From Marsupella aquatica (lineage: Eukaryota > Plantae > Marchantiophyta), in the NCBI GenBank assembly GCA_973895155.1, contig OZ316893.1:6085239-6149238 (forward strand): DNA of 64,000 nt. The letters are read 5' to 3'. Numbering within the stretch: the first letter of the stretch is position 1; each line of letters begins with the position of its first letter. The position numbers were made by a program, and so were the translations under genes. This document shows, piece after piece, positions 1,481 to 46,524 of the stretch. Below the pieces are notes generated by a model that was not told the origin of the DNA, did not search any database, and worked only from the letters and a program-made list of their open reading frames with translations.

Positions 1481-1481
1481 T

Positions 1482-1925: not shown

Positions 1926-2071
1926 ATGAAAACTTGTGAAATAGCATAATGAAAACTTGACAAAGGTAAAAAAAAAAGGGGAGGTACACTCGGCCCCTAG
2001 ATTGATCACACCTTTGCTCTGCAAAAGATGCCCTCGTTGCTGACCTTCTGAGAAGCCGGTAAACCTTGTGT

Positions 2072-2079
2072 AAACCCTA
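2072..2079 (+). promoter_or_regulatory. Telo-box (AAACCCTA)
   Basis: Exact AAACCCTA 140 bp upstream of the PheRS-beta ATG; this motif is known to be enriched near plant translation-machinery genes. Confidence 0.5.
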
Positions 2080-2211
2080 TTCCGTGCCCTCCCAAGTTTC
2101 TCGAAACCCTTCAATTCCTCGAGTTCTGTCCCGTCAGGAAAGTTGAGAGCGAGACGATATGCAAATTGGCGATTCTCGTCCAGGTCGAGGTTCAGGTCGA
2201 GGTGGAGAGCA

Positions 2212-5200
2212 ATGCCGACCGTCAGCGTGAATCGGGATCGTCTCTTCACAGCGTTGGAGGAAAAGTTCAGTGCGTAAAATTCATCACCTCACCTGTGCTC
2301 TACAATCCCTTGTTCTGCTTCTCTTGTTTCATGGGAGTCCGTCTTTCCACATCTCCAGTGACTTTCTCACCATTCCAGAGTTTCAATGCTTGAATGTGGA
2401 GCCTTAGGTGTTTGTAGCAGTCGAGAACACTTTTAGATTCGGATGATGTGATTCAAACGATTTGTGTATGCTGGTACAAGGCAGTGAACTGGTTTCTGAA
2501 CGTTGGAATTAGTAGCTCGTTGCATTTTGAAGTGTGTTAGATACATTCATAAAATTTTGGCATGGAGTTGAGTAGCTGCTGCAGAGCCAGCCATGCGTTT
2601 GACAATTGGATCAGCTTGACTCGGAACTAGGGCTCTGGCATTTTGGGGAATGCGTTTCGAGCGTGATTGAAATCTGATTGGATCTTTGTTGGATACGTTT
2701 CGAAAGTAACGCTTTCGCGATGCTGACAGAGTTAGTTTTTGTGGCTGTGCAGCGGAAAAGAGTTTTGATGAATTGTGCTTCGATTTTGGAATTGAACTCG
2801 ATGACGTCGTAAGTTAAATTTGAACGGATCTTTCTACTCGTGAGTTGGACAGTTGCTGTCTTATGTAGCCGTCGTTTGCAATCACATTCAAGGATAGCAG
2901 CTTTCGATTGGAAAAGTAACCTCCGAAGCTAAAGTCCTTCATTGAGGATCTGAGGGCCTGTTGATAAATATTGGTGCAGACCACAGAAGAGAAGATCATA
3001 AGGAAGGAGAAACATCTGGCCGACGAGTCAGCAGCTGGTGAAAACGAAGAGATCATTTATAAAATTGATGTGCCTGCCAACAGGTGCGTCCTCAAGTGTT
3101 GATTAGCTCTGTATTGCTTCCCTCTCGCAACGACTTGACTGTGATTTACAAATTCCTCTTTTGGTACCTGGCAGGTATGATCTTTTGTGTCTTGAGGGTA
3201 TTGCACGAGGATTACGCATCTTCAAGGGAAAGGAGGAGGTGCCAACCTATAATCTTGCTCCAGTTTCCAGCGCTAACATACAAAAGCTGACTGTCAAGCC
3301 TGAGGTTAGTAGTTCTTACTATTTTAACACTTCTCAGATTTGGTACGGGTTCGACATTGAAATCCAGCATTTTGCAAATCAGGTTTTTGGAGTCATGTTC
3401 CCAGTACGTTGTTTCTAAGGGTTGAAATTTTATTGTTACAAATTAAGGGGTCAATTGATGATGCAGACACCAATTGGTAAATTTGTTAGGGCTACAGAGA
3501 CTGGAAAATGCCCGCGGCTCACTAGATAGAAGGCATGCTATCGCTGGAATGGATGATAAATTTCAGTCGAAGCTGCTTCCCTGTTGATCTCCTTAGCATA
3601 ACGCATTTTTTGCCCCTGCAGACATCACAGATTCGTCCGTATGTAGTGGCTGCGATTCTGAGAGGCATAACCTTCAATAAAGCTCGATATGACAGCTTCA
3701 TTGACCTGCAAGACAAGTTGCATCAGAATATTTGCAGGTTGGCATCCTGTGTTCGAATCCATTTCGTATCTATTTCCTTATGAATAGAAGCATGACATTC
3801 GCACTTAGCAGTGGCACTTCGTTGAATGTGTTCAAGACATCAGTTCAATTCAAGTTCCCATTGCGACGTTTCTAAAAATATCCTAGAAGACCGCTTGTGG
3901 TAAGGTTCTGTGCATATTAAGTTAGGTCTTAGCAAGTCATGTGTCGTTGTAGCATACGATAAATATTTGAAGGTGGTTTATCTATGTTTTTCCCATCAGG
4001 AAGAGGACGTTGGTTGCCATCGGAACCCATGATTTGGACACAGTACAAGGACCCTTTACGTATGAGGTTAAGAATCGTCCTGGAACTTTATCATCTTCAT
4101 GTCAATTTCCTCAAGTCTACAAGCAGCGCATTTCTCGCAGGACAATCAGCTACCCCTAGCAACTGTCTTGAAGACAAATGCACTCCGAAGTTTCTTTCGG
4201 GCTAAGAAGTAACTGATTTCTATGTAACTGGAATCGTACGTGATTGTCTTAAATACGTCAGCCCAATTAACTTAGTCTCGACACGCTACAGTGTTTTGAT
4301 TTGAAGAAACTTCTGGATTTTCGTCAACTGAAATTGTTCCCTTTTTTTTTAACTTGCAGGCACTGTCGCCCTCTGAAATTAAGTTCATTCCACTTAAGCA
4401 GGTTTGTGACTACCATCTATGTTGATTGACGTAGAAATTTAATGCGTTGATGATGGAGAATTCACTCTCATTCTTTGAGGCTGCTGGAGCACAGTTAGGA
4501 TACAAAGTATTGTCTTCGAAACAGGGATATTCCGATGGAATTGTCAAACTATGACGATCGTTTGTTCCCTTTCCCTCAAGTACCACCGACTGGATTTTTC
4601 TAAGACCTTTTTTTAATTGTCTGGTTGCAGAAACGAGAGTTTACGGCTCAAGAGCTCATGGAATTCTACAAGGTATAACCATCTGCCTAACTTTATAAGG
4701 GTTGACTTGTGGCGCGAACGCCTTCTGGCGCCTTGTACACTGGATAAGTTAGACTTGAAAAAGTGAGAGGTTTGGTTAGACGTTGACCTGCATTGGAAGT
4801 CATCCTCACAAAAATAACTGTCCTTGAACGTGAAATATGATGGAAAACATCCGTTTTATTTGAAGCACAGAAGGAGGGTTGAGTAGTATCTTCAAAATCC
4901 TGGAATCCTGACAGAAGTGTCGGTATGGCAGGATGATGTGAAGTTAAAGAAGTTTTTGCCGATTATTGAAAGCTCTCCTGTGTACCCAGTCATCTATGAC
5001 AGGAACAGGTAACTTGAGTCTTTTCGTGCAATATATTTAATGAAAGAGATGGAATTTGGGTTACTTTAAAAAGCACTAATGTGAACATTTGTTGGATCCT
5101 GACTCCGTTTTTTCCGGGTGGCGCAGGACTGTTCTCTCCTTGCCTCCAATCATAAATGGTGCTCATTCAGCAATTACCTTAAGCACTAAGAATGTGTTTA

Positions 5201-8200
5201 TTGAGTGCACAGGAACTGACCTGACAAAGGCTAAAATTGTTTTGAATACAATGGTAAGCGCTTTTACAATTTTCCCTCTGTGAAGAGTAGTTCTTCATGA
5301 ACTTTGGTTATTGTGAATACTAGCATTTTACTCCCAGTGGAGCAAGTCTACTACGTAACTTGAGTGATAATTAGCCTCAAGCAGATTTTTCATCTTGCAA
5401 CTCTTCTCAGCAATGCCACTTTGAAAATATTCATGTCCATGAACTGCACCGTTAAATAGGCCAAATTTTAAATTAATAAGTCCACTATCCCTATGTGCAG
5501 CTGGCTGTAGTTGTGTTAATTGGGGAATACTTTTTTTTGGAATGAACCAAAGGTTCGGAGTGCTGTTTAAGGTCCGGGTCCCACGACGGTCCCTGATTTA
5601 GGCTTGATATTACCCAACATGTCCCTGTTTTTAGTTTAATATGTTGACACAATCATCTCATACAAACTACCTGTCGGCTCCATCTCTACCCTGAGCGCAT
5701 CTTCTCCCCGAGCTTTGACCCATATTTTAGTTATGATGTCCATTCATCTCGGTTGGGCCATGAAAATGCTGGTGTTGTTTGTTGATGTGAAGGTGACAAT
5801 GTTCTCTCAGTATTGTGCGCGGAAATTTGAAATTGAGCCAGTTGAAGTAATCAACGAAGGAGAGTCAGTTCGGTATCCAGATTTGTCCTTGCGGAAAATG
5901 GAAGTGGATGTGTCTTACATAAACGACACCATCGGAGTCAAAGTTGCACCAATGGATGTGAGTAATTTGATCAGTATTGTTTCCATGGGCAGGATGATAA
6001 GCAGGTACTTTTGTGTCAATTCCATAGCCTGTTTTCTGACAGTTCGTACATTAGATTGCTCGTCTTCTGTACAGTATGCAGCTACCAACAAAGGTTACAA
6101 AGTGTGGGGAAAACGCTAAAGTGACCGTGATTGTTCCTCCAACAAGAAGTGATGTTCTCCATCCTTGTGACGTGATGGAGGTGACCCCATAAGCCTTTTC
6201 GTTCCCTGTCTATGGCTGCTAAACTTGGCAAAATGTGTATTGGTTGTAGAGATGCTTTGGGTTCTGGTTCAATCCTTTTCGATTTGCTGATTTCCAAGTT
6301 AGAAAGTATCCCGAGGTGGGAATTGTATAGAAGCCTTCTAGCTATCGGCTTAAGACATCAAAACATACATCAAGAGAGGACAGCTGTTCATGAAGTTTTG
6401 TTTGTGTTCCAAGAATTCTAGTTTTAGATTTAAACGGTTTGGGCTTGTCTGTCTGGATAACAGGATGTCGCGATTGCATTTGGGTACAACAACATTGAGA
6501 AGACAGTTCCCAAGTCACATACGCTTGGCAAGCAACAGGCTCTGAACCATTTCACTGACTTGCTTAGAGAGGAGGTATTTTCTGCATGATTGCTACATGA
6601 TTTGGCTGGCTCATTGATATTAAAGTGATGCCTTTCTTCGTATTTTAATATGTTTCCAAGCGCTCTTCATCATAGGTAGAATTTTTTTATTAAAGCTTGT
6701 CACCAGGTTTCTACTTGGTTTGTTGCTTTGCTAAATGCCTCACCATTTTTCCAAGCTTCATCCTTGAAATCGATCCAAAAAAGAGAGGATGGACAATTAT
6801 GAATGTCATAGCTTGAGATGGTGAGATCCAACGGAGAAAAACAATGCCACCCGCAAACTACAAAGTGTCCAAAAATCTGCTTCCAACATCTCCATACAAT
6901 CTATCCAAATTGTGCATGCCGTATAACTTTCACCAGAGATTCAGCCCATAAGTATCTGCGGAGTTGTGAGGCCTTTTAAATAAAGAAAACCACATCCAAA
7001 TCTTGACTCTTAACGAACGCTCAAATTGTTTTAAGTAGGAGTGACAATTCTACCAAATTCTTCCTTTCCAGTGAACAATTCATTCTTAATTGTAGAGAAT
7101 ATTCAAAACTTGGCGACCGCATGCTTGGCAGTGATTGACCAAACGTGTTGAATATTTGCAGATTGCGCTGGCTGGCTTCACCGAGATCCTTTCATGGATA
7201 CTAGGTTCAAATGTGGACAATTTTGTCATGTTGAATCGTGAGAAAAGCAAGGAGAAAGCTGCAGTGGTTGGCAATCCACGCACATCTGAATTCGAGGTTT
7301 GGATCCTCAAACACGTGTGACGTCTTTTGAGGGTGCCGCTGACAGCAATGCCTCCGTTGACCGAGTGCAATGTAGGCCACATGACACTTTCAATATTTGC
7401 GGGAACAATGTTACCCGGTCTCATTAGTCTTCCTCTGGAAATGGAATTTGAACAGGGGACAATGATGGTATCTTGCTTAATACCAATTAGGGGCATGTGC
7501 GTGCCACATTTGGCTTTAGCTCAGCATTTAGTTCAGGACATTTTGAAGTTTTGAAGCCGCACTGTAGGGCTTGGTACTGAAAATGCTTTATGCCCTCTGT
7601 GCAGGTTGTCCGTACAAGCCTCCTACCAGGGATGCTGAAGACTATGGCTCACAACAAGAAAACTCCGCGGCCTGTAAAGGTGGCGTAAGCCTTACATGGC
7701 ATCAGCTGCATAGTTTAATAGTTTTCTTTTTTGCATTATTTCTAGTCGTTTGCTATGCATCCTCTAGTTGCCTTTGCGGGAGATTCGATAATCTTCTAGA
7801 GGTGACTTGCTGTGGGTAGGAACGGTAGCAAGCATACTTCCTCGATAATGCTCACCTTATGCAAGGGTGAGGTGTCCTGCAAATGTTTCTGCTATCAATC
7901 TTTTCGGGATCTTCTTCGAAGAATATGGCAGGCATGCATAATCGGGTGGCTGTGAGCGTTGTCTTTTGTTACTCAAGTAGACAATGTCGCTTATCTGTGT
8001 GACCTCCTTGCGCAGCTGTTCGAGGTATCTGATGTGGTGCTTCTAGACAATAACGTGGATGTGGGCGCTTCAAATCAACGGCACATTTGTGCACTGTACT
8101 GTGATCAAACATCTGGATTTGAGGTAAGTGTCGCTCTGGATGTTTAGAAATTCCATGTTGCACAAAGTTTGGACGTTCGACCAGAGGTATGAAACACAAC

Positions 8201-20137: not shown

Positions 20138-20482
20138 TGTTAGGCATTTACTCTTTAGTCTAGAGTTACAACTGTTACCATAGTTAGAGCTAATCGTAGT
20201 TGCGGGCTTGGTTAAGCTAGTCATGTTGCACACTATATCAGAAACAATGTTTGCTTGAATAGTAAGAACCTAAGCTCATGTTAGGGAGCTAGTTGAAAGA
20301 AAAGGAGATCTTTTGTTGAAGAGACTTAGTATGGCCAACGGGCCTAGAGTGCAATAAAACTCTAGCATTGTGCTCCCATGGACATAACCTCAATTGAAGT
20401 GAACCACATATCTTTCTATGTCAATTACTTGTGTGTTGGATGATTATGGGCTTGCCGTTGTGAATGTAGTCTTTACTCAACA
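20138..20482 (+). mobile_element. Solo LTR of the same copia family as 34493-40374 (older, diverged)
   Basis: TG...CA termini (tgttagg...ctcaaca), 345 bp; colinear with the reverse complement of 34493-34836 (ggagctagttga, ggcctagagtgca, gtgaaccac, tgggcttgccgtt); flanks actgg/actag are a near-perfect 5-bp TSD. Confidence 0.88.
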
Positions 20483-21940
20483 ACTAGCTTTACTCGAGCA
20501 TGAGCTAGGGGAACTGCAAGCTTAAACAGGGGTTTTGCATGAAATGTTTAGGTAGGTAACACCACAAATTTACTGAAACTATTTTTTGCCTCTATCTTTT
20601 TTGGAATATCCTAATGTATTCTCAAATTTAGTTTGTAATACCCTATCTTTTCTTGTGATTCTTACTTTAAGCGGGGAGGGCGTGGGGTGCCACTCAAATA
20701 TTCCCAACCCACCACAAACCAAATAATTAAGAAGAGAGTTTTAAAATTTATTTAGACTTAAAATTAGAGATTTATTTAGAACTAGATTAAAGTATTTGAA
20801 TCCAATTTTGAGTCTTATAATGAAAAATAGCCAGGTTTTACACACAAATGCGATATTCCAATCTGAGTATTCCAAATTAATGAAAGTGAAGCCCAGATGG
20901 ACCACCCAAATGTGGTCCACAGAAGTTTTGGGTAATAACTTGATGATTATGTGTCATTAGAAAAATAGTTTTGCACCTACAAGGCAACAGACTATTGTAG
21001 AGAAGATGAGTCTACCTTAAAAAACGCAAGCCCAAATAATTCATATTAACACAGTGAAAATTAGTTCTATAGAATTTACCCCTCTTGATTTCATGATCAA
21101 TAAGTGGGCCAAAAATTCACTTTCATTTACTTTGATGGTAGTGTCATTTACCTACTCCTCTAGCACAATCATCCTCAAAACTAAAAAATACTTGAAATTA
21201 CTAACATCAAATTATCACAATAAGTGAAATGTGGTGGATAGGAGCATCATGTAAAATTTGGGAATTGTGGTCCATTTGAGCATCATGGAGCATCGGTGAA
21301 TAAAAATTAAAATAAGCTGAAAGTGCAATGCATCAAGTCATCAACGCCAGATCTTGAAAATGCACATGGAGAAGTACTATTCTTGTATCATGTCAGTGAA
21401 TTGTCAGTATTAGGGGGTCTCAAATATCGGCCCGGGACATTTTAGCGGCCGGCCGAGTTAGGTTCGGGTGGACACGGCTGAAAAGTGTGCGGCACACCCT
21501 TAGCCTAGCCCGCACACACCTCCCGCGGCGATTTACCGTTGCCCGGGACTGATACTTTGAAACGGTCGACTGGCCGTAATTTTGAACTAAAGTTGCATCT
21601 CGCGACTTTCTTCTCCAACGTCGGGCCATCCTCACAGAAGGACGACCACCATAGCTTGTGCTGCGACTATGCACAGATACAAGGGAGCTTGGCGACGCGA
21701 GTGTGTCATCGCCTTGATTCTCAACATTCATCGGTAGGAGTGGTGATTGCGCAAGCTTGCGTACGTGGAAGAAGAAACCAAATCCACAACTCAGTGGGCC
21801 TCTCGTGACATCAAATTTGGTGAGTTCATATTTCCATTGCGGTGTAGTTGAAAGCCACTAGCACTGGATTCCAATTCTCAACGAGAATACATGTGAAGGG
21901 CCGGCATGTCTGAGTTCAATTTTTGTTTTCACAGGAAGAT

Positions 21941-22600
21941 ATGGGAGAGTGGACCTGTCTCTCTGAGGTCGATGATAGTATGGACAGAGGCGACAACTCG
22001 ACCTTCCCTCCCGCATTAGTGTGGCTAATCAACTACATTGCTCCTAATCCGTATCCTCGCAAATTTGTGTACAATGCCTGCTCGCATAGACTATCAAACG
22101 GTAGGATTTGTTCCAAATCCTTGGAATTTGGGCCCTGTTCCACGCATACTTCCGGCCCTCTGCTGAAGTTTAGGTTTAAGGTCATCATATTTGATGCCAT
22201 CCATGGAGGCACGCCCCCTCTCCATGTCAACCTATGGGATGATGCATCGGTGCTCCTTGGATGCAATGCCGAGGAATTTAGTACTTGTACTGAGAGACAA
22301 CAAATTGCTTATTTGGATGCACTCATGCAAAGCACTCCGAGAGCAAAGGTGCTTTTGAGAACTACGGACAAGGGAATCACAATACAGCATTTGACTTTGT
22401 TGAATGCTCCGCAAATCCCTATGCCTATTACGTTACACTGTTGCGGGAGTCCAGAATCTGGAAGTAGTTCTTACCAGACACCGACTAAAAGCAAGTGTAC
22501 TCCTGCAAAAACAGGCACTTCTACTCGGGGTTCTACTAAGAAATTGTTGGAGGAGCTCTCCAAGGCTATTAGGAGTGTAGATTTAGGTGATGAGGACTAG
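21941..22600 (+). CDS. Transposon-borne RPA1 C-terminal OB-fold / zinc-ribbon-like protein (219 aa)
   Basis: Open ORF; FVYNACSHRLSNGRICSKSLEFGPCSTH...FRFKVIIFD...VNLWDDASVLLGCNAEEF parallels RPA70 DBD-C (Y-x-AC...C-x-K...C-x2-C...RY-x-L...I-x-D...T-x-F...A-x2-LLG-x2-A-x-E); upstream intron 21820-21934 (GTGAGT...TTTTCACAG). Confidence 0.7.
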   Translation: MGEWTCLSEVDDSMDRGDNSTFPPALVWLINYIAPNPYPRKFVYNACSHRLSNGRICSKSLEFGPCSTHTSGPLLKFRFKVIIFDAIHGGTPPLHVNLWDDASVLLGCNAEEFSTCTERQQIAYLDALMQSTPRAKVLLRTTDKGITIQHLTLLNAPQIPMPITLHCCGSPESGSSSYQTPTKSKCTPAKTGTSTRGSTKKLLEELSKAIRSVDLGDED

Positions 22601-22787
22601 CTTTCATTCAGGGCGTAGGACTAACAGTTCTGTGTACTACTATAGGTTCTGTGATATATGTATCCACGATCATGATATATTTCAAATGAAAATCACCTTT
22701 TCCAGTTCTGATTGTAATTGCGTATGTTGAAAGAGTGTTGTATGTGCTCCCTTGCAGTGTCGGGGTGAAAATTGCCATTCTCAAATC

Positions 22788-24274
22788 ATGCCAAAGGTCT
22801 CAAATCGCCAACAATGTCTGAAATGGGCTCGAGAACAACTTTATTTGAGTATCATGATGGAAAGCTCTACTGACAATGATGGCATGAGTGGGTCCTCTGA
22901 TTCCTCCTCTCAGAGTAGTGGCTTCATCACCTCAAATAGTGATATTGCTGATGCTGACTCATCTTCAGATTCAGATGATGGAATAACAAGTGATCCCACT
23001 GATCTGAATGCAAAACCATCCCAGTGGCTGGACTTGTATGCTCTGTTGGATAGCGAGAGGTACTATGAGAAAAGATCTAAAACTCCTCGAGCTAAGGAAT
23101 TTGCTGACACATTTTTTCGAACAATCCTCCCCCAGAGTGACTTCCGGCAAATTTGTAGGATGGATAAAGACGCTTTTTTTGGCCTCCTGGCCTTGATTGA
23201 ATTGAATCCTATTTTCTTGAACAATTCACATCATCAACAGGCCCCAGTCTCACTTCAACTAGCCACCTGTTTAGATAGGTTGGGACATACAGGAAATGGA
23301 GTTTGTTTGAAGAGAACTCTGCTTCTTTGGGGTGTCAGTATTGGATCCTGTGTGAACTACACAAGTAGATGCATCACTGCCTTGGAGTGTGCCCTTACTG
23401 ATTTGCTCAAATGGCCGGATAGGATTGAGCGAAGTCAGATATCACAGGAATTTTCAAAGAAGGGCTTCCATGGGTGCGTAGGCCTGATTGACAGTACTAC
23501 CCTGCCATTGACACAATGTCCCAAAAATCACGGGGAGTGTTACTTTGACAGGAAATCAAGATACTCCATCAATGCACAGGTAGTTTGCGACCATAAGAGA
23601 AAAATAACTTACCTCAGCGCAGGTGAGGACCATTATTGTTTTTCTTTGCATGATTTATGTATTACTCTAAATTTATGAATTGTAACTTGCTCATGTTTTG
23701 AAGTGCAATGACAGGAATGCCGGGGTCTTGTTCAGACATCACAGTCTTGAAGAGGAACATCCTTTGGCAGAAAATTCATGGAAACTCTGCATTTGATGAA
23801 GGCCAGTATCTCATTGGGGATTCAGGTTATGTGAATGCACCTCACATGGTGGCAGCTTACAAAAATACATTTGGACAGAAGGACAAAGAGGATTGGAATA
23901 CATGTATTGCAAAGACTAGATATGTGAACGAGCATTGCATCGGGGTTCTCAAATCGCGTTGGTTTTCTTTGAAAGAGATACGCACACAGCTTAATGGGAA
24001 AAAGGATAATGTGTGGATGTGCCGTTGGATTCGTGCGTGTGCGCTACTGCACAACTATGTTTTAGGACAAAGGGATGAGTGGACAGAAGCTGAAATGTCT
24101 GCATGGCCACCTGGCCCTCCTGAAGAGGATGATAGACATGTAGGCGGAAACATACATTCTGACATTGCCAGGAGTAGGAGGGCAAGAGCAGCTGGTACAA
24201 GGTTACAGAGGGCAGTCATGGCTCGTGTGTTGCAGCTGAACAGGCAGCCAGGTGGATCCTTGTGGGAGGCCTGA
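22788..24274 (+). CDS. Harbinger/PIF-type DDE transposase (2 exons, 464 aa)
   Basis: Exons 22788-23622 and 23715-24274 (GTGAGG...ACAG); motifs FRQICRM, QLATCLDRLG, GLIDST (D1), YSINAQVVCD, GMPGSCSD, GDSGY (D2), RYVNEHCIGVLKSRW (E), CALLHN; no stops. Confidence 0.93.
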
Positions 24275-24540
24275 CTACGCAAGTCTCAAATTTGCAGAGT
24301 GGGTACATATTTGCAAATTAAATAATAGAATAGTGCTCAGTGACAGCAAGATGACTATGCAAGGTGACCTAAGTGTCGTTTGTAAATGTATTACCACTTT
24401 CAAATAAAGTCGATCATTGTATTTACGCAAAATAATAATGATCAAATCCTACATTTGATTCTCATTGCTCAAAAATTGCACATGTACATTCTACGTTCAC
24501 GTCTACTACCACTACTTCTTGGTGCAACGAACATGAATAG

Positions 24541-26287
24541 CTACTTAGCCACATGCTTCTTTGTAGCCCGCTTACGAGTGCCTTCACTGTCGACGCCTTC
24601 GCTGCTCTCGTCACGGCTGCATTTCGGCTGAGTTGGGACGTTGCTGCCATGGTCGTAAATTCCCTCTCTTATAGTAGTAAGTACTACATATTTCTTTGTT
24701 CCTGTTCACCTAGTAAAGCCTCTAAAGAACTCTAGCCAATGTTACTCCTGGTCTCCATCATCAACAGGTGGTCCTGAGTCGGTGGACATGGTACATTCTA
24801 CCATTCTCATCAATCTACTAATCTCTCCCTCTGATTTGCCGCTCTTGAACAAATCAGACATCAGTTGTCCACGCAAGGTGATTTGTGCCATCATCATTTG
24901 GTGGTGTTGGTCCATTCGCATTCGCTTTTCAGCTTGTGTTGCACTGAACTGTTCAAGCTTCATCTTGTGATTCCTATCTAACTTGTCTTTCTTCGATGAG
25001 TCAACCCGTGCTTTGCGTCTGTCTTCAATCTCATCTTTCTTCCACTGATTTTTGTTGCCAATGAGCTCTTTTCTGAAGAGTGCCTTCTCCCTTTTCTGGT
25101 CTGCATACATTGCTGCCAAGCTCCCTTTTGAAGTAGCAGATCCCTCTCCATTTGCTTTAAGTCTTGTTGGAGCTGCCTTGTCATTCCCCCTCGGCGTAGA
25201 CTGTGCTCGAACTGGTCCTTGCGGTGCAGATGCAGAAGGGATTTGGTGTGTCCCAAATTGTGTAGGTCTGGATCCACCTTCACTGTTGGGGGGGGGGGGG
25301 GTCCGAATTGGAGCTTGTTGGGGGGCATTGGTTGTCCGAATGTCTTCGGTCCCTCCCCTAGAGGGCTCAAAATTCTCTGGAACAGGAGTAGGAGGCTGTT
25401 CATCGACACCACAATGAACAGATTCGTTCTCCATGCAAATAACAAAAGGGGATGTAAATGAACATATATGCACATAACAGACAGCTGAATACATCAAAAG
25501 TAGGAGACAGTTTGTGGATTTAATTACCTGCCATTAGCCAATTTGGAGAACCTGGTTCTTCTCCACCATCAGGGACTTCATTATCGCTCTCCTCAACAGG
25601 GTCTTCAGTCTCCTCTGGAGACTCAGTGATCCCACATCCTCCAAAACCGTGGTCTACCATTCCAGGAGGTTGAACGTTGGCACGCTCCCCACATATTGCA
25701 TGCATGCGATCAAACAGCGGACACATTTTGTCCAATTTTTGATCGATAGTAAGACCACATTGGAATTCCTCCTCTGTGAGGCCCCCACCGGAAGAGTTCT
25801 TCAACAACAAAGCCTTCTTGTACATATCCTGATACCTCCCGAATCTTTTAGCAAGATTTGCCCCATCCATCTTTGGAAAATCGTAATGAGCCAACACTGC
25901 AGCCATTGAGGTAAAGACCGATTTCTTGGATTGATAGCGATTACCCGGCCTGGTTTTTCTTCCAGCCCCGAAGATGGCATTGTAATTATCTTGGACCTCA
26001 AGATAATCGATAATCAGGGCATAATCCTTTCGAGTTAGTTTTGTGGTCACAGCTGCGGTACCTCCGACACCTCGTCTACTTCTTGACATGCCTTGTCGTG
26101 ACAGTCCTGCCTCCCGTGCTGGATGGAATGCACGATTGCCTTGTGCAGCGACTTCTTGCTCAGATGGCCCAGGGACCAGAGTGCGTGGAGGTATGAAACC
26201 GCGTCCACTCGTACCAGACCTTTGTGCCATTTCAGAAGACATGTCCTGCACACCAATCGCATCCTCTGCAGGGATTTGCATCTCCAT
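24541..26287 (-). CDS. Harbinger partner Myb/SANT(trihelix)-like DNA-binding protein (about 3 exons, ~505 aa)
   Basis: Proposed exons 26287-25528, 25376-24746, 24667-24541 join in frame (first acceptor uncertain); IIDYLEVQDNY...KRFGRYQDMYKKA...CPLFDRMHAI, acidic linker, basic coiled-coil C-terminus; convergent to the transposase inside the TIRs. Confidence 0.75.
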
Positions 26288-26595
26288 GTCTCCCAGTCTC
26301 GCCTCCCACCAAAAGCTCAATTTCAAACTTGTTTGAGTTAAACGCCTAAAGATCTTCGCGCGATGGTCCTTAACATTCAAAATCACTCTGCATCCGGGCC
26401 GTCTCAGTATTGGGCACCATCTGTCAAAGTTCGGCCGCAGCCGGTTCCTTTAACCGGAACTCACACTTTACGGGCCTAAAAAAATTGGGTCACAAAAGAA
26501 AGGTGGTGCCGGTAAACTTGCCCGCGACACTCATAACGGACGCGTCTGACCTCCCGGGAAATAATGTCCTGGGCCGATATTTGAGACCCCCTATT

Positions 26596-34492: not shown

Positions 34493-37400
34493 TGTTGAGC
34501 ATAGACGACATTCGTAACGGCAAGCCCATGAACCATCCAACGCACAATAGTCGACACAGAGAGATACGTGGTTCACCTCCACATGAGGCTACGTCCACGG
34601 GAACACACAAGAGCTTTACTGCACTCTAGGCCGACCGGCCATACCAAGCATCCACAGCACAAGCTCTCCCTATCTCTCAACTAGCTCCGTAACAATGAGC
34701 CTAAGTTCCACCAGGGTCTGGCATCAGCCCTGGCTATATACACAACAGCACTACCGCTAACATTAGCTAAGTCCTAACCCGAGTTAGACTAACCGTGGTT
34801 AGCACATGAGTCACAAGACTAGAGCAATATCTAACAAACTCCCCCTTGACTCTTGTCTTGGGGACTGGATTAAATGCAACCATATGGAATCCTCAGCGGG
34901 AAGTTCTAGACAATCACCAAACCAGGTCTCCCCCTAAAAACCACAAGGGTTAACTAAGGGTTAACTAGAACTAAACCGTAGCCAAAAGGAATGAGTAATC
35001 CATATACAAATAGTCTCACATTGCTAAATAACTCTACTTGCATTACAACTGCAAAACCTGCAAAGTAGCACGGTGTCTTGAGAAACTCTCCAAAGGAATC
35101 ACTTTGGTAAAGGCATCAGCGGGATTGAGCTTTCCATCAATCTTGACTAGCTCAAAAGTTTTATCAGACACTGCTTGCCTGATAAAATGGTACCTGATAT
35201 CAATGTGCTTCACCCTGCTATCCATCACCTGGTTAGCAGCCAAGTGAAGAGCACTCTGACTATCACAATTTAGAGTCATTTTTCCATGCTCTAAACCCAT
35301 CTCCGCGATCAACTTATCCAACCAAATTGCTTTATTTGCTGCTTCTGCTGCTGCAACATACTCTGCTTCTGTAGTAGACTGAGAAATGCACTTCTGCAAG
35401 GTAGATTTCCAACTGATACATCCTCCTCCAAGAGTGTATACAAACCCAGTTGTAGACCTCCTTGTATCCAGACAGCCTCCATAGTCAGAATCTACATAGC
35501 CAACTAACGTTCTCTCTGATCTGTTATCAAACAGTAATCCATAGTCCTGTGTACCCTTCAGATACCTGAGAATCCACTTCACAGCTTCCCAATGTACCTT
35601 CCCTGGATTTGACATGAATCTGCTAACCTTGCCCATCGCTAGGGCCAAGTCAGGCCTAGTACAAGTCATCAAATACATCAGACTACCTACTGCCTTCTCA
35701 TAAGGAATCTTAGCCATCAGACCTTTCTCCACAGCATCCGTAGGAGAGAAAGCCGATGATAACTTAAAATGTGAAGCTAAAGGAATACTCACTGGCTTAC
35801 AGTTTTCCATGTTGAATCGTGCAAGTACTTTCCTCGCATACTGGCCTTGACTCAAGCACAACTGTCCAGTATCAGAGTTCCTAAAAATCTCCATCCCTAA
35901 GATCCTTTTGGCTTTATCAAGATCCTTCATCCTGAATTCAACACTCAATTTTGCCTTGAGATTGTCAACCTCAGATTGATCTTTAGCCACAATCAGCATG
36001 TAATCCACATAGATCACCAGAATGATGAAACCAAACACATCATTCTTGACTGATTTCGTATACACACAAGGATCATACACCATCCTTGTAAAACCTTGAG
36101 CAAGCATGAAATCATCAAACCGCTTGTTCCACTGTCTGGGAGACTGCTTCAATCCATACAAGGACTTGAGCAATTTGCAAACTAAGTTCTCTTGGCCTTT
36201 CTTTATAAAGCCTAGCGGCTGTCTCATGAAGATCATCTCTTCCAAGTTGCCACAGAGAAAAGCAGTAACAACATCCATCTGATCCATCACCAGATTAAAA
36301 AACACAACAAGCTGACACAAGATCCGAATTGTGGAATACTTAGCCACCGGTGAAAAGACCTCATTGTAGTCCACTCCTTTCTCCTGAGTGAACCCCTTGG
36401 CAACAAGCCTTGCCTTGTAGATCTTATCTCCACCCTCTGAAGGACTGTCTTTCAACTTGTAAATCCACTTGTTGTTCACCACTTGCTGACCTCTTGGAAG
36501 CTCCACCAGCTCACATGTCTTGTTGTCACTCAAAGATTGCTCTGCATTGCTGCATTCCACTCATGCTTCTGCTCCGAAGCACAAGCCTCACTGTACGAAG
36601 AAGGCTCTCCTTCTTCCAAGATCACAGCCATGTCATCATCATCAGGTGCAATGTCAATATCATCTAGCTTAGATGAGTCTGCCCATTGACCATACCTGGT
36701 AGGAGCTCTAGTAGAACGATTGGAAGTTCTTCTAGGAGATGACTCAGGCTGATCTGCTGCTATTGCTGGTTGAATTGGAGGTACCCTAGCAACAATCTGC
36801 TCCTCTTGTTCCATCACAGGAACCAGCTCCAAGCCCGAAGCTTCTCCATCTCTCCTGTCATGAACAGCATCATGACTAATCTCCCCCTCAACCGGGTCCA
36901 GGATGGGAGATTTCCCCTTGTCAGTATGGGAGTCCTGAGAACTCTCCCCCTCCTTTGATGATCTGGACTCATTAAAGGACACATCTCTACTGACAATTAG
37001 TTTACAGGTTACTGGATCCCATAACCTATAACCCTTCACACCTTTCTGATAGCCAAGGAAAATGCACTTCTTTGACTTGGACTCCAGCTTGGATCGAAGC
37101 TGGGAAGGTGTAAGCACATAAGCATCACATCCAAAAATCCTCAGATGTGAATAATCTGCTGGACGCCCGTACCTCATTTCAAATGGCGTCTTGAATCCAA
37201 TAGAACTGGATGGAGAAAAATTTACCAAATAAGTTGCAGTGTTGACAGCTTCAGCCCAAAACTCATGTGGTAAGCATGATTGACTCAACATACTCCTCGA
37301 GCGGTCCAATAGTGTTCGGTAGAGTCTCTCAGAAACACCATTCTGCTGAGGAGTATAACTTGTTGTGAGATGGCGTGTAATCCCCTGCTCCTTACAATAC

Positions 37401-40374
37401 GTTCCAAATTCCCCGGAACTGTATTCACCGCCGTTATCCGATCGGAGATATCTCACCTTATTACCAGTCTGATTCTCAACTTGGGCTTTCCACTCCTTAA
37501 AAGTGGCAAAAACATCAGACTTACTATGTAGAAAGTATATCCACACATACCTTGAGTAATCGTCTATGAATGTGACATAGTATAATCATCCAGAATGTGA
37601 GAGAGTAGGGGCTGGACCCCACACATCACTATGTACATACTCAAGTACCTCCTTGCTGGTGTGAGTTCCAACTCCGAAGGGTTTCCTGTGCTGCTTTCCT
37701 AGCACACAGTGCTCACAAAATTCCAACTTACAAGATTGCAAATTAGAAAGTAATCCTTTCTTCTGAAGAATAACCAAACCTTTTTCACTCATGTGGCCCA
37801 AACGGAAGTGCCACAGTCGGGCCGTCTCCTCATGAGATAAGGTTACATTGGCTTCATCACAAACTACATTGCCCTCCAAAACGTATAGATTGCTATGTCT
37901 CTTTCCCTTCAATACAACTTTAGTACCAGTTGAAACCTGAAGGACACCATTAGCAGAGCTCCACTGATGGCCATTTGCTTCTAAAACTCCAAGTGAAATG
38001 AGATTTTTCATCATGTTGGGAATATGTCTCACATTCCTCAACGGTCTCACAACACCATCAAACATCTAAAATCTTACAGATCCAAGTCCAACAACTTGAC
38101 ATGGGATTCCATTTCCCATCAATACTAACCCGTTGGAAACCGTGTAAGAACTGAAACAATCTCTCCTAGAGCAAATGTGAAAAGTACATGCACTATCTAG
38201 AATCCAGTCATCACTCCCTGGATTTGACACTACGTTGAGAGCATAACCTTGACATCACAATATGTCATCATCATCGAGTAAATCTACCTCATGCGAGCTT
38301 GATGCCGCGTTAGCAGATGCAGTAGGGACCTTTACTCGACAATCCCTTTTCATGTGGTCAGGCTTGCCACAATTCCAACATGCAAGAGGCTTCCTTTCTT
38401 GCGATTTCCCTCTGGATTTAGATCTCCCCCGTGATGTAGATCTAAACCTGTTCTGTCCATTTGAGCGCTGCGCTGCTCTCCCACGGTTCACATTCAGCGC
38501 AGTGCCAGAAGAAGATGCTGTCTGTGATTGACCCAACTTCTTCTGAGCATCATCAGACAGTAAAGAGCTCACCACCTCATTATACGAAATGGACTTCAGA
38601 TCTCTGTACAAGAGCACCTGTTTCAAGCCCTAATATGACGGCGGTAAGGAGCTTAGCAGAAGCAAGGCCTTATCCTCATCTTCAACTCCTTTTCCCAGGT
38701 TTGACAGATCCACCGCTAGACTGTCAAACTCATCCAAGTGATCCTGCATCTTGCTCCCTTCCTTGAGCCTGAGGCTCATCAAGAGAGACTTCTTGTACAG
38801 CCGGTCTGACGCATCTTCCCGGTAGTACTTCTCTCTTAGAGCCTTGAATAGTGATGCGCAATCCGCATAATCATCCAGCTGCTTGATGATGTGCGGCTTC
38901 AGATAAAGCATCACTGCATTAACAGCAATCACCTGCTCCTGTCTCCACTGCTTTTCTGAGATCTCCTCCTCTCCATCATACTGCTCTCGCGAAGAGAGCA
39001 GATGAGCTAAGCCCATGGCCCGAAGAACACCCTTCACTTGCTTCTCCCACAGCAAGTAATCAGTACGACCATCGTGCTTCTCCACCTCAAACTTTACTCC
39101 TCCGAATCTAGCCATCTCCCTCTTCTTCCCAACTACCAACAGCTCTGGTAGTAGTACAGCTTCCTCCACTGCACGCCGCACCGGTGATCGTACCGGTGTT
39201 ACTTGTTCCTCCTCAAATGGTAGCAGCTCCTCCTCAGACTCTCCGTCTGACCGTCGCGATCCTGAAGCTCCACCGATGCCAATTCTTCCAGTATCCTCCG
39301 AGTCACTCATATGAAACAATCACGAAAAAACATCTTTTTTCGAAACTTCTCATAAAACTCAAAACTCAACACCGCTGCGTAGCCCATGAAGCTAGGAGTC
39401 CAATACTGAAAGCCAAAATCAAAATCAAAATTCGACGGAAAAGTTATTCAAATTTCGGTCGGGGTGGGTAAAACCTTGGGAAACTCCCCCGTCTTGACCA
39501 CCTCAGAGAATAACCGAAATACCAAGTACAACCTGTCGTCGGAATCGCGATGTGATCGGTGCGCCGCGTTGCTAACTCCAGTGGCAACGTCCTCACCAAA
39601 AAAAAACCAAAAAAGTTACCGTTCGGCGGACGGAATCTTTGTCGAACGGCCAAAAAACAGCTCTCTGTTTTTCGGGAATATTCCCGCACAGTACAGCAGG
39701 TCTCACAGGGGGCCGTTCCCCCTGTCGGAGCGGTTAAAACGGAGGGTGACCGGTCCCGGGACAAGAGGAAAAGCAAGGGGAAAGAAAAAGGCTTAAAATA
39801 GGGCCAGCGAGTACAAAGGAAAAAAGCGCGCCGTCGCGATGGCAGTAGCAGGGACGCGAGGGCGAGGCCCTAAGGCACGGCACGGCCGGCCGAAGGGAGG
39901 CAAGGGGCGAGGAGGGCGGGCGCGGGGTCGCAGGCGTAAAGGCCAGGGGGAGTGGCGCCGGCTGAGCCCGAGCACGCACTTCGAGCAGGGCAGCAAAGGG
40001 TCGGGGGTCGCAGGGGGCATTGGCGGCAGGCAAGGAGCATAGACGACATTCGTAACGGCAAGCCCATGAACCATCCAACGCACAATAGTCGACACAGAGA
40101 GATACGTGGTTCACCTCCACATGAGGCTACGTCCACGGGAACACACAAGAGCTTTACTGCACTCTAGGCCGACCGGCCATACCAAGCATCCACAGCACAA
40201 GCTCTCCCTATCTCTCAACTAGCTCCGTAACAATGAGCCTAAGTTCCACCAGGGTCTGGCATCAGCCCTGGCTATATACACAACAGCACTACCGCTAACA
40301 TTAGCTAAGTCCTAACCCGAGTTAGACTAACCGTGGTTAGCACATGAGTCACAAGACTAGAGCAATATCTAACA
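34493..40374 (-). mobile_element. Ty1/copia LTR retrotransposon, full length but defective
   Basis: LTRs 34493-34836 and 40035-40374, identical over the shared 340 bp by eye; 5-bp TSD ccact (34488-34492, 40375-40379); PPT aagggggagtt at 34837-34847; domain order gag-PR-IN-RT-RH. Confidence 0.96.
35043..39319 (-). pseudogene. Copia gag-pol, disrupted
   Basis: Gag LLLSSLP and CWNCGKPDHMKRDC knuckle, PR WILDSA, GAG-pre-integrase WHFRLGH, IN SDNGGEY/PQQNGVSER, RT YKARLVAKG/SLYGLKQ/YVDY, RH KHIDIRYH/ADAFTK; in-frame stops at ~38630, 38255, 38066, 37586 and a frameshift at ~36540. Confidence 0.93.
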
Positions 40375-42009: not shown

Positions 42010-43730
42010 GTTTTTCATTTTTAAAGTAACCTGGCCACGAAAACCCAGTGGCAGCTAGGGGGGAACATTCCTCCCTCCATTCTATGCCTAAACATAACCA
42101 CTGGGAGGGCGGCCAGTAGACAGTAACAGCACAGACAACAAGGCAGCATCACAGCCAAGGCACCGCCGAACCCCCATGTTACCCGCAGGGGGAGACCCAG
42201 AATGCGAGAACGTTGCAGCCCGGTCAAACACTCTATAAAGGACCAGCTGGACAAGACAGGGTCTCATCTGGAGGAGATACTCACAATGCATCTATGCAAT
42301 CAAAATATTCTTTCCTGATTAAGGATCTCTTTCACTTTTAGCAATCTAGTGTGATGCCTCCCTGGGACAAGCATAGACCAACAATGGCCACATGATCAGC
42401 AGCTTCTGATAAAATGAATCTAAGGTCAAATTTCCTGCGGCCGTTTGCCCCGAGGTATGCCTGGAGCATCTATGTATTTTGCCCAGCCCCAGTAAACCAC
42501 TTTGATATTAGGAGAGCATCAGCAACAAAAAATCCTTGAGGCCAAGTCCTCCCTCCACTCTATGCCTAGCATCCTGGCCCATGAAACCAGAGGTACCCAG
42601 TTACCCCCCCTCTGGGTTGTATCCCCACAGAAAATCTCGGCATAGTGCAATCAGTTTCTTAGCCAAACCCCCTGAGGCCTTTAGGAACCAATTACAGTGG
42701 TATATAGGAATGGCCTGTAGTATGTGTCTAACTTGCAGTACTCTTAATGACAAAGACAACAATTTGTTTGCCCATGAAGAAAGCCGCGCTCCAACCTTGT
42801 CTAGAACAAGTTAAGCGGTGCAGCTGATCGATCCTCAAATCCACTTCCATAGGGCCCCCCAAGTATTTATGTGTCTCCCTGTTTTTGCTAATCAGGCAAC
42901 CAGTGGTTGTCAACCATTGAGGGATAGATAGTATGGGTAATGAAAGGAATCACTACTGATTTCCTCAAGTTAAGTTTTGCTCCTGTAGCTGTCTCATAGC
43001 AGTTCAACACTATTTTGGCCATGTGAAAACTTCTCTCAGTTGTAGGGATGACCATTCCAATGTCATCTGCAATAGTCTGTAGCAGATTGTTAGTGCCTCA
43101 GAGATTTTAATCCCTAGTAGCTAGCCTCCCAGCCTTCAATTCCTTATCCATGAGATCCATAAGCGGTTGAGTTGATATTACAAAAAGCAATGGTGACGGT
43201 GGACATCCTTGTCTAACTCCACGTTTCAGCCGAATGGTCTTAGCCAGCAGGCCATTCACCATTGCTCGTGACGTATCATCTGTTAATAGAGCTTGAACCA
43301 GCTTAATAAAGTGACTACTTATCCCTAATAAATGTGTCGTCTCCCATATGTACTCGTGGTTAACTCTATCAAATGCTTTCTCAAAGTCCAGCTTGAGAAA
43401 TAGAGATTCCTGTTTCCTATTCTTCACCCAATCACATGTCAACCAGGCAAGTGATATGTTCTCCAAAATGTTCTTGCTAGGGATAAACCTTGTCTGTTGA
43501 GCATTTATCAATTTAGGTAATATGAGCTTCAACCTAGTAGCCTCAATCTTAGCAATGAGTTTATATATCGCATTCAACATATGTACTAGAGGTCTCCAAT
43601 CCTTCGGGAACAGGTTGTCTAGTTTTTTAGGGATAAATTTAATGATCCCATCTTTTACCCTTGCTGCCAACTCACCAGTCAGCCTGAAAACGTGTATCAT
43701 AGCAGTCAGATCAACCCCTGAATGAACTCT
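42010..43730 (-). mobile_element. 5'-truncated, degenerate LINE (L1-clade-like) RT fragment
   Basis: ORF 43107-43700: DWRPL..LNAIYKLIAK, KLDFEKAFDRV, RGVRQGCP.SPLLF; frameshifted ADD at ~43065, KYLG at ~42860; boundaries approximate. Confidence 0.85.
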
Positions 43731-46524
43731 TAATTAATATTATTTTCCCTTCATACTTGGCCCTAGCTTAATATGTACTAGATCTATTCAAGAGTTTGTT
43801 GCACGTGTAAGACTTTCATTTTTTAATTAACTCACTAAGGTACATTAAAAAATATCATTCTATTGTGCTAGAAGACAAAACATCAAATTATGTTCCAGTA
43901 GGGCCAGCTCAAATATTGAGCTATTCTAAGTGCATGTACCTGGCCTTCATGGCCATTGCATAGAGGGGAATCAGAAGAAATTCATTGTATCTACCTACGA
44001 TTTTGGTGACCACCTTGTGAGGTGACCTTGCTGATTTTGTTTCTTAACTGATCCTCTAACCTGGGTTCCTTTGACAATTTTTGGGGAGTCTTACAATAAG
44101 CTTGTTTGATGCTTCTGTCGGATGCATCATGGTGCTTGAAAGTAATATTTGTGGTTACTCTATGTATGAAATTTCTAAATTTGTTGTGTCAAGAGCATGA
44201 AATAGTAAATAGGAAACCTTAACAAGTTGTCGTCCCTATTTGCTCCCATTCTTGCAGGGTCCTTGCATGATTGTTCATTAACTAGTATTTGTGAAGCAAA
44301 TTATCTTTTTTGAACGTTCAATATTAGTACATCTTACAACATACTTACCCTCTTAAAAATGACAAGTGAAGAACCCTTGCACAACATTCTCTCAAATTAG
44401 GTAAGAAGAGCAACAAGTCTAGAAAATCATTAGGGAGGTTTAAAGCTGACAGTTTGATGGACCTGAATTTCCTAGTTACAGGTTATGGACACAAAAACTT
44501 ATGTACTATGATATTCATAGTCCATAAAATTTTGCAGTACTATGATAATTATTCATAATCCATAAATTTTACCCACAAAGATTGGTCCTATGCTATACCT
44601 ATTAGTCACTCTAAAGGCTGATGACAGAAAAAAACAAAAAACCCAGGTTCCTGGGAAGACTCCAAAACTAGGGTCAGCGGTTCAGGATAATTTGTATAGG
44701 ACTAAATTTGCCCTATCGCGAGTGGCTCTTGATCAATGTGAATGTGTTCAAGGCATATTCCACCTACAACTCCCATTCCCATATTTTTCTATTTCCCACC
44801 AATATTTATTTTTTTGCCGCTGGCTGCTTTATTTACACAACCTTGTGAAAAAGTTATGACCATTCGCCCTATTAATTGCACACATTTTGACCTACACACA
44901 AAGGGCATTCTACTGGTTTGGAGGGTCCATAGATACCTCCTAGTTCATGCACAAGGAGCTCAAATATTGCAGAAGCGACAGTGGTGGATTCACCCCATGC
45001 GCATGCCACGTGCGGCAACCGAATGCAAAGCTACGCTTGACACAAGACGATACGAGTAATACCACTTTGGAGAAATGCTTCAAATAAAGACAAGATGCCA
45101 CCTTCGCTGATGCCCCGAGAACTGCAAAGCCAAAATGTTCACCTATAAAACACTAGAATTCCTAGGGAAGGTAAAAAAGTTAACATACAGGCTGATTGGC
45201 TTGCAGGATCAGACACAAGGCAATCGTGCATGCACGAATTGCACGATAGATCACTTGGACGCTGAGCTTGTCCTTGACTGCTTGCATGGTGAACGACCGC
45301 TACTGACTTTTTAGCTACCTAGCTGTATAGCTTCGTAGCTTGTACGATGCTCGTTGAGGATCTTCAGATGCGTGCCCTGGAGCCAGCAGCTGTGGCACCA
45401 TTCCCCAGTCGTATTAGCTCACCGGCCAAAGAGATCCAAGCCTTCCAAGGGAATGTAAACGCCTAAAGCATGTAAACCAAGGTTGGCCAGAACCTTGGCA
45501 GAGTAAAAGCCTGGGAGCCAAGTTTGTGTGTACCAATTAAAGTGCTGCTCAACTGCTCTGTCTTACAGTCTCCGAGTAATTTTCATCCTGAGAAATCTCT
45601 AGCAGTCTAAGGAAACAAAAACAGAATTTGAATAATCTTCTCGTGAGAAATGGTTAAGGAAACAAATTTAGAATATGCAGAACCTGCTCACGTTCAGTGG
45701 CAAGGTAACAGAACAAGATTCAACTCTACTAAGAAGCCAAAGACAAATCAATTCCTGCAAAAATACTTGCTGAAATTCTAAATTTAGAAAATGATGAATG
45801 AGTACTACCTTCAAGTATGCAAGAGCACTTTCATGAATGCAAGCTCCGACAGAAAAGCACTACCGTAGTCGTCATTAGGTTCGCGGTGAAAATAATTAAA
45901 TCCAGAAAATTGGACGGCCAGCGCACAAATTCGTGACTGCATACGTGTCAGGCCGGGAAATTATTTTTTACAGTCCGTGAAACAGTTCAATCTTTTTTTT
46001 ACCAGTCCCGTTTCACCCACTTTTACTGGGAATTATTAAAATGTGGGACTCATTCGGCCCGGGTACTCTTGGACATTTTTTCCCGTCATTGAAACACGAG
46101 ACATGAAATTTCGCACCATTTACGACCGCGATGTGCAAGGCAATTCACGGAGCACACATTCATGGCTCACAGGAAGACATTCATGATTCACAGGCCCACA
46201 CGTAGACAGATCCAATGTTTCATGGAGAATGCAGGAGTGTTATTCAGATGTTGAAAGCCAAATCATCCACAAGCGGATGGAGGCCTACTTCATTGACAAA
46301 TTCAATGAATCGTGGAAGATTCAATCCGAACAAAATTTGACAAAATCACAGAATTGAGTGTGTACACACTTAAAGAAGAGCATACAGGCAAAACGCCCTT
46401 AAGTGCCTTCGAGCTTCTATCGATAAAGTTACTACGGCTCATCAACTACACTATAAACTACTTGGAATACTCTAATCTCTCTAAACTACTTAGAACGTTG
46501 TGGTCGTTTGGCAAGCGTTTTGGT

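Follow-up and report, generated by a model that had tools for sequence, protein, structure and literature searches.

Within a 64,000-nucleotide stretch of the genome of the liverwort Marsupella aquatica (contig OZ316893.1, positions 6,085,239 to 6,149,238; hereafter the window, whose own numbering is used throughout) we find a cut-and-paste DNA transposon of 5,181 bp, at 21412–26592. Besides a transposase and a partner gene (ORF3; ORF, open reading frame) it carries a third gene, ORF1, whose product is predicted to have the fold of one domain of the replication protein A (RPA) large subunit, the C-terminal DNA-binding domain (DBD-C) of RPA70. The anatomy of the element and the fold of ORF1 are well supported, and the function is predicted: we propose, with a probability of roughly 0.4, that ORF1 acts as a tethered single-stranded DNA (ssDNA) binder at the resected donor site or at replication forks, raising the net gain of copies.

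ORF1 (21941..22600, plus strand) encodes 219 amino acids (aa), laid out as an RPA70 DBD-C-like OB fold with a C3H zinc ribbon (aa 1–155), a linker rich in serine, threonine and proline, an amphipathic C-terminal helix and an acidic tip. A putative intron in its 5′ untranslated region (21820..21934, plus strand) can be read from a GTGAGT donor, a pyrimidine tract and, 6 nt upstream of the ATG, a CAG acceptor. A comparable acceptor-like stretch immediately precedes the equivalent start in the homologues P0001 and P0010. An AlphaFold2 (AF2) model built from three sequences reached a pLDDT of only 33, and an alignment of 47 sequences was used instead, giving a pLDDT of 95 and a pTM of 0.87. The best Foldseek matches of this model are the DBD-C domains of human, yeast and Ustilago RPA70 (E 2e-5 to 7e-5). 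A wide structure search gave VIA Z scores of 13.8 for Teb1 OB-C and 13.6 for Ustilago RPA70 DBD-C, with root-mean-square deviations of 2.5–2.8 Å over 134–135 residues; the best row outside the RPA1/Teb1/POT1/CST-type OB-C domains has a Z of 8.5. At the sequence level the signal is weak. The family profile matches the DBD-C of yeast RFA1 with an E of 0.006, and Pfam Rep_fac-A_C is matched at E 0.03, with 4 of the 47 members at E ≤ 0.1. In the ESM comparison ORF1 scores 0.91, and its neighbours include plant Rep_fac-A_C clusters. No profile similarity was detected between ORF1 and the transposase. A match to TnsA, seen with a three-sequence profile (E 0.075), was rejected as chance.

The OB fold and zinc ribbon of DBD-C are found in ORF1 by the AF2 model, Foldseek, the wide search and the alignment. 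The chain of DBD-F, DBD-A and DBD-B that precedes it in RPA1 is not there: the protein is 219 aa long and its domain begins near residue 1. Since the gene stands alone, encodes one domain in 219 aa and is modelled with the DBD-C fold, we assign ORF1 as DBD-C alone, about a quarter of RPA70, and not as a whole RPA1. The initial annotation of this DNA had called it an RPA1-like ssDNA-binding gene and had set lack of OB-fold similarity beforehand as the result that would overturn that call. The similarity is present, with RPA70 DBD-C as the best match, and the resemblance extends to one domain rather than to the full protein.

A HMMER profile search recovered 102 clusters at 50% identity, of which 98 remained after removal of unrelated proteins (P0028, P0071, P0072 and P0088, belonging to other domain families, were taken out before lengths were counted). 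The family has a median length of 210 aa, and 91 of the 98 clusters are no longer than 300 aa. Among 27 representatives that were looked up, the seven with an organism name all come from liverworts, five from Calypogeia fissa and two from Riccia sorocarpa. Genes of the family in the Calypogeia fissa and Riccia assemblies include CAM6082296, CAM6099887, CAM6105707, CAM6089661, CAM6095858 and R1sor_014200. One Calypogeia cluster has three members on three contigs, and the Calypogeia members are scattered across a quick tree of the family, which, judged from sequence, is the pattern of a mobile gene with several lineages. A Riccia-containing subgroup (P0048, P0069 and P0079) has a long unrelated C-terminal extension (357–675 aa, no Pfam match), possibly a fusion in a different element. 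A metagenome scan for DNA loci around ORF1 relatives came back empty.

Conservation is concentrated in the residues expected to matter for such a domain. Across the 47-row alignment the zinc ligands are kept in 47/47 rows (C47), 46/47 (C57), 44/47 (the third Cys column, C66) and 42/46 (the His, H69). In the groove, Y44 is present in 45/47 rows, an aromatic residue occupies the positions of W99 and Y32 in 46/47 and 45/47, respectively, and a basic residue that of K41 in 43/47. Taken with the zinc ligands, the groove residues Y32, K41, F42, Y44, K59, R78 and W99 are conserved by residue or class in 81–100% of rows. This conservation suggests that the family is under selection at the protein level. 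The base-stacking residues listed for Ustilago RPA DBD-C include Y487, F541, W537 and F590 (PMC8329085). Y44 and W99 align with the Tyr of the YPAC and the Phe of the LTLF motifs in yeast RFA1. We take these two positions to correspond to Y487 and F541, both of which look kept; the position that we presume to be W537 is mostly basic in the ORF1 family and the F590 loop looks lost, the numbering being transferred partly by assumption. Behind the barrel, a linker of about 40 aa (median 41; 36% S/T/P) leads to the C-terminal region, where an amphipathic helix pattern occurs in 33 of 47 tails (shuffled mean 4.3, maximum 11) and an acidic tip in 10 of 47 rows (1.5 in shuffles).

The transposon itself is confirmed by its terminal inverted repeats (TIRs), its target-site duplication (TSD) and its three frames. 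Sequence comparison and pattern search place the left TIR, which begins AGGGGG, at 21412..21441 (plus strand) and the right TIR at 26563..26592 (minus strand). The two 30-bp arms are complementary at 29 of 30 positions, with one mismatch, and a 22-nt TIR pattern has two matches in the window where 0.00 are expected from 100 shuffles. On either side the flank reads ATT, a duplication of the ANT type (21409..21411 and 26593..26595), supported on the left also by the arithmetic of the empty site. Copies and empty sites were assessed from Logan contigs. In contigs of X2 and X4, two of four runs, position 21409 is joined to 26606 with 12 letters between, which is exactly the window minus the element minus 3 bp. 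Seven of the 12 letters agree with the predicted empty site, and the remaining five are all transitions. The join is a paralogous empty site and supports duplication of ATT, so the near-perfect 30-bp TIRs and perfect TSD of the initial annotation are borne out. The host DNA around the element is a high-copy repeat, with contig depth (a hint, not a copy number) in the thousands at 20400–20640 and 20882–21363; host repeats border the element at 20400–21409 and from 26606. The observed/expected ratio of CpG is about 1.0 at both ends of the element (21412–21934 and 26285–26592), compared with 0.35–0.56 in the coding parts. From this retention of CpG, the termini and promoters look as if they escape methylation.

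The presence of ORF1 in other copies can be followed in the contigs. Depth, again only a hint of copy number, is 17–19 in unique flanks and 47–48 in the element interior for X1, and 31–36 versus 81–97 for X2, which suggests about three near-identical copies; these differ by 10 substitutions and 21 gap letters over 4,560 bp. More diverged sisters appear in X1 as contigs of single-copy depth. Two of them join the TIR to the ORF1 start (21432 to 21941, depth 20.4; 21443 to 21924, depth 18.1) and three join ORF1 to the transposase start (22245 to 22788, depth 20.4; 22264 to 22788, depth 19.9; 22264 to 23022, depth 21.7). These joined contigs match the window element only in islands, at 81–87% identity, and the similarity peaks on conserved motifs of ORF1 (21910–21970 and 22154–22336), not between genes. 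Indirectly, this shows that three or four diverged sister elements keep ORF1 between the left end and the transposase. The third gene, which might have been captured once by the copy in the window, thus recurs in other elements. Short, non-autonomous derivatives that use both ends (21422–21690 and 26452–26592) are also present, with joints from 21616 to 26452 in 3/4 runs and from 21517 to 26577 in 1/4, a loose end at 21690 that runs into right-end sequence and many different flanks at 21404–21411. In run X6, which is recorded under another organism, two short contigs match 22537–22662 (the end of ORF1) and 22698–22861 (the start of the transposase) without a difference, and little else of the element is present.

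Based on these observations, we suggest how a third protein could serve a cut-and-paste element. In Ping/Pong the TIRs are the binding site of the second protein and the place where the transposase cuts (PMC10288884). The transposase and partner described here would excise the element, leaving a donor break to be closed by end joining or by copying a homologous template; the second route can yield an extra copy (PMC10288884). ORF1 is a predicted zinc-binding protein that would bind ssDNA, because the zinc ligands and the aromatic and basic residues of the groove are kept. Its C-terminal helix may dock on the transposase/ORF3 complex, on itself or on host RPA2-RPA3, and ORF1 would therefore be brought to the element. 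By holding resected or fork ssDNA, it could tilt donor-site repair toward copying from the sister chromatid; alternatively, it could place jumps in S phase. With either, cut-and-paste would become a net gain, the donor copy being restored more often. In a haploid gametophyte the sister chromatid is the only repair template. For mPing, limited evidence from yeast supports copy gain through repair of donor sites on homologous templates (PMC10288884). The broader form of the proposal, which we hold with less confidence than the biochemical role itself, is that a liverwort-wide lineage of cut-and-paste elements has made the trimer-building domain of RPA1 a dedicated third transposition factor, a tethered miniature ssDNA-binding protein (mini-SSB) that directs how the donor break is mended or commandeers host RPA2-RPA3, so that a non-replicative element gains copies in a haploid genome.

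Several points weigh against the proposed role. The contig joints were assigned to single elements by their equal depth and not by reading along contigs, and in X1 a contig of depth 12 runs from the TIR to the transposase and contains nothing that matches ORF1 at 80%. The ORF1 contig of X4 lacks one nucleotide at 22111, and the gene is gapped in X5 contigs of low depth. The seven Calypogeia accessions of the ORF1 family adjoin none of four sampled transposase accessions (nearest 377 apart), and the two Riccia sorocarpa tags adjoin none of 19 transposase tags (nearest 50 apart), in samples that are small and consist of cluster representatives only. A metagenome scan for DNA loci around ORF1 relatives came back empty. 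The evidence for linkage of ORF1 to a transposase is confined to this genome, and distant relatives of ORF1 may sit on other elements. In the protein the groove is altered: at the Trp position that precedes W99 basic residues predominate (64%), and the last loop is short. The net charge of the OB core is close to zero (−8 to +4 in 12 rows). A single OB domain alone binds ssDNA weakly, and two-gene Pangu elements, the group to which we compare this transposon below, transpose without ORF1. Any repair bias could run in either direction, because it is contested whether RPA is a help or a hindrance to microhomology joining (PMC13733916).

Features of the same domain suggest another use, which we regard as unlikely: ORF1 may be an RPA decoy that binds host RPA2-RPA3, forms a stunted or alternative RPA and loosens replication-coupled silencing of the element. 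ORF1 corresponds to the trimer-building part of RPA1, DBD-C with a C-terminal helix, and lacks its main domains for DNA binding and signalling; in structure it is matched best by the RPA trimerisation core and Teb1 OB-C, and the helix is retained in 33/47 rows. The RPA trimer depends on a bundle to which each of its three subunits contributes its C-terminal helix (PMC8329085), and Arabidopsis RPA2A/ROR1 mutants change transcriptional gene silencing (PMC3950690). However, titration of RPA would be toxic and not specific to the element, and the retained groove aromatics would be needless for a pure decoy. In RPA70 the C-terminal helix comes straight after the barrel, unlike that of ORF1 behind its linker. 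A rather improbable alternative takes ORF1 as passive cargo, an RPA1 fragment from the host or a Helitron that was picked up once, or that moves among transposon types, and is not needed by the element. Two-gene relatives exist (L001, below), the Calypogeia and Riccia samples give no adjacency to transposases, and some contigs have indels in ORF1. There is precedent: TET/JBP cargo moves ‘frequently but passively’ among fungal transposons (PMC12730594), and the RPA genes of Helitrons are fragmentary and optional (PMC11417382). Against this, the single-domain frame is open, and the zinc ligands and tail helix are preserved, across 98 clusters that share less than 50% identity. The similarity of the sisters peaks on ORF1 motifs and not between genes. 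Neutral cargo would decay.

The altered groove would also fit a binder repurposed to recognise RNA, the element ends or an R-loop, with a tail that recruits chromatin or SUMO-linked factors and so protects or expresses the element; we consider this improbable. S/T-P sites occur in 43/47 tails, and 10/47 rows end in xDL[TSDG], which we take to resemble the SUMO-interaction consensus. The DBD-C-type folds of POT1 and CST, seen among the structure rows, can presumably be sequence-selective. Yet the non-coding DNA of the element has no repeated motif beyond shuffles (k = 6–8, p 0.52–0.81), and the SUMO-like motif is present in a minority of rows, counted without a shuffle control. Very improbable is a nested Helitron or other insertion that carries ORF1 in the window copy only. 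RPA-like genes are typical Helitron cargo (PMC11417382, PMC9033089), as the initial annotation had stated, and plant Rep_fac-A_C clusters are among the ESM neighbours of ORF1. A Helitron 3′ end, a hairpin with CTRR, was not found around ORF1 in 21442–22790: of nine CTRR-T sites there, the sole plus-strand one downstream of ORF1 has a hairpin of −1.8 kcal/mol, equal to the background median. Nor was a RepHel gene or other helicase frame found among the ORFs of at least 50 aa in the element. The position of ORF1 is, moreover, unchanged in the diverged sisters, and an origin of the third gene from a nested Helitron, raised at the outset as a way for the annotation to fail, finds no support here.

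Downstream of ORF1 lies the DDE transposase, in two plus-strand exons (22788..23622 and 23715..24274) matching DDE_Tnp_4 in Pfam with E values of 1e-5 and 3e-14, respectively. The intron between them (23623..23714; 92 nt, GT-AG) is placed from the reading frame and homology, and the start agrees with the N-termini of relatives. The spliced protein has 464 aa and a catalytic triad of D235 in exon 1 and D314 and E351 in exon 2. Residue 236, next to the first catalytic Asp, is a Ser here and a Gly in 17/17 relatives (DG to DS). ORF3 lies tail to tail with the transposase on the minus strand. It is a Pangu-type second gene, whose exon 1 (25528..26287) encodes a helical domain and exon 2 (24742..25433) a low-complexity linker and a charged helical C-terminus. 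The first bases of exon 2 are missing in the window copy: 16 bp at 25433, including the G that ends the splice acceptor, are lost here and present in contigs of 4/4 runs. An in-frame cryptic acceptor at 25376 might rescue splicing of ORF3. Because of Ser236 beside the catalytic Asp and the lost ORF3 acceptor, the window copy is probably impaired. The element family is young and may still be active. The initial description of three intact, compact genes in a possibly still active transposon holds for the absence of premature stops from all three frames and may hold for the family; the copy in the window is probably damaged in two of its genes. Its Myb-like partner is a homologue of the second gene of a two-gene Pangu-type element (L001), with 29% identity over 145 aa of exon 1 (E 2e-16). 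No Myb/SANT match was found for ORF3 in Pfam or PDB-sequence searches, and an ESM Atlas score of 0.80 to Myb/SANT (Myb_DNA-bind_4) clusters is a weak lead.

The features of the element match those of Pangu (Harbinger2), a branch of the PHIS superfamily, and not those of the classical TWA-type Harbingers, so that the earlier Harbinger-superfamily label holds at the level of PHIS and the subgroup changes, by the ANT duplication and AG-starting TIR. Pangu is defined by ANT duplications, TIRs of 11–40 bp starting with AG or GG and a second gene that is mostly free of motifs, and classical PIF/Harbinger by TWA duplications (PMC4482050). Pangu is Harbinger2 of Repbase, according to Kojima (PMC12730594). 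Myb_DNA-bind_4 is given for the second gene in 2 of 29 Pangu rows of Table S3 of PMC4482050 (29 of its 34 rows). In the window element, the ATT is duplicated and the empty site lacks the element plus 3 bp; the TIR has 30 bp and starts AGGGGG; DDE_Tnp_4 covers both exons of a transposase with its DDE triad and no extra domain; and ORF3 is without a Pfam match and homologous to the second gene of L001. If the TIR is started from G, the flanks read TTA and TAT, with no duplication; started from AG, they read ATT and ATT. In a quick tree of transposases that of the window element falls in a liverwort clade (support 99), which stands beside Phytophthora and L001, whose row fills only 48% of columns; the tree includes no named Pangu, Harbinger or Nuwa references. 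Among named relatives of the transposase, those of the liverworts Calypogeia and Riccia come closest (45–55%), ahead of Phytophthora (35–40%), and a scan of viral and prokaryote collections found none. Transposase scans of metagenomes gave three loci (L001–L003), none with ORF1, L002 and L003 being only 1.7 kb long and too short to show its absence. L001 is a complete two-gene element of 3,472 bp (1287–4758 of its contig) with AGGGGG ends, a perfect 22-bp TIR, an ATT duplication and the transposase tail to tail with the ORF3 homologue; no ORF1 match was found in it, even with the filters of the hidden Markov model search off. A second inverted pair lies at 5537–5892 of the same contig.

The window holds other mobile elements. 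A second TIR element of 5.6 kb (45863–51446) has 27-nt inverted arms, including a terminal TA, that are 96% complementary. It contains a DDE_1 (pogo/Tc1-like) frame at 48204–49736 and two long frames without a Pfam match at 46525–47199 and 49789–50442, all on the minus strand, and is another multi-gene DNA transposon. A Copia-type retrotransposon with gag, integrase and reverse transcriptase, interrupted by a few stops, lies at 35043–39319 (minus strand), and a LINE-type reverse transcriptase fragment at 43107–43733 (minus strand).

The element shares with the Pangu group of Han et al. (2015, PMC4482050) the ANT duplication, the AG-starting TIR, the DDE_Tnp_4 transposase and the motif-poor second gene. 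Its tail-to-tail layout matches that of L001 and of the two-gene, ANT-type Harbingers of Ectocarpus (PMC12477816). It differs from Pangu in having a third gene upstream of the transposase and a length of 5.2 kb, compared with a Pangu average of 3.5 kb (PMC4482050). No land plant is among the 15 genomes named in the text of that survey, and Pangu-type elements thus reach land plants, beyond the founding survey. The initial annotation took Harbingers as typically limited to a transposase and a Myb/SANT protein, but three-gene forms are known: HarbingerS of Phytophthora (SET) and PHISTA of rust fungi (TET/JBP), in each of which a PHIS transposase occurs with an accessory gene inside the TIRs (PMC12730594). 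HarbingerS is related to Pangu (PMC12730594), and Phytophthora supplies the nearest non-liverwort transposases here (35–40%). Because three-gene Harbingers are already described, the novelty lies in the cargo and not in the number of genes, and the claim of an undescribed architecture narrows to that cargo. Literature searches, which did not extend to Repbase or most subscription journals, turned up no RPA or OB gene in a cut-and-paste TIR transposon. The cargo of HarbingerS and PHISTA is a chromatin- or DNA-modifying enzyme; the liverwort element carries an OB domain that is predicted to bind ssDNA and has no catalytic role.

Transposons that move by cut and paste make no copies of themselves, and their increase is attributed to host repair or to the timing of replication forks. 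An element with its own RPA-derived domain suggests that the element may control the copy-gain step, and if the mini-SSB proposal is true, it would be the first DDE element with an ssDNA-binding protein of its own. A further outcome is an unannotated family: some 100 divergent DBD-C proteins that stand alone and that annotations of liverwort genomes would misread as RPA1 fragments. ORF1 has the same zinc-ribbon-interrupted OB barrel as RPA70 DBD-C, Teb1 OB-C and archaeal DBD-C-like domains (PDB 1l1o, 4gnx, 3u50; PMC8329085), with C3H ligands as in some archaeal RPAs and several base-stacking positions retained. It differs from them in its low identity (12–20%), its lack of DBD-F, DBD-A and DBD-B, its short last loop, its helix displaced behind a disordered linker and its being encoded by a transposon. 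The RPA-like genes of Helitrons (HLE1/HLE2; PMC11417382, PMC9033089) are the same kind of cargo, RPA-derived OB domains that were captured more than once. Helitrons move through a single-stranded intermediate, which gives such cargo an obvious use, whereas the element described here has TIRs, a 3-bp duplication, a DDE enzyme and DBD-C alone.

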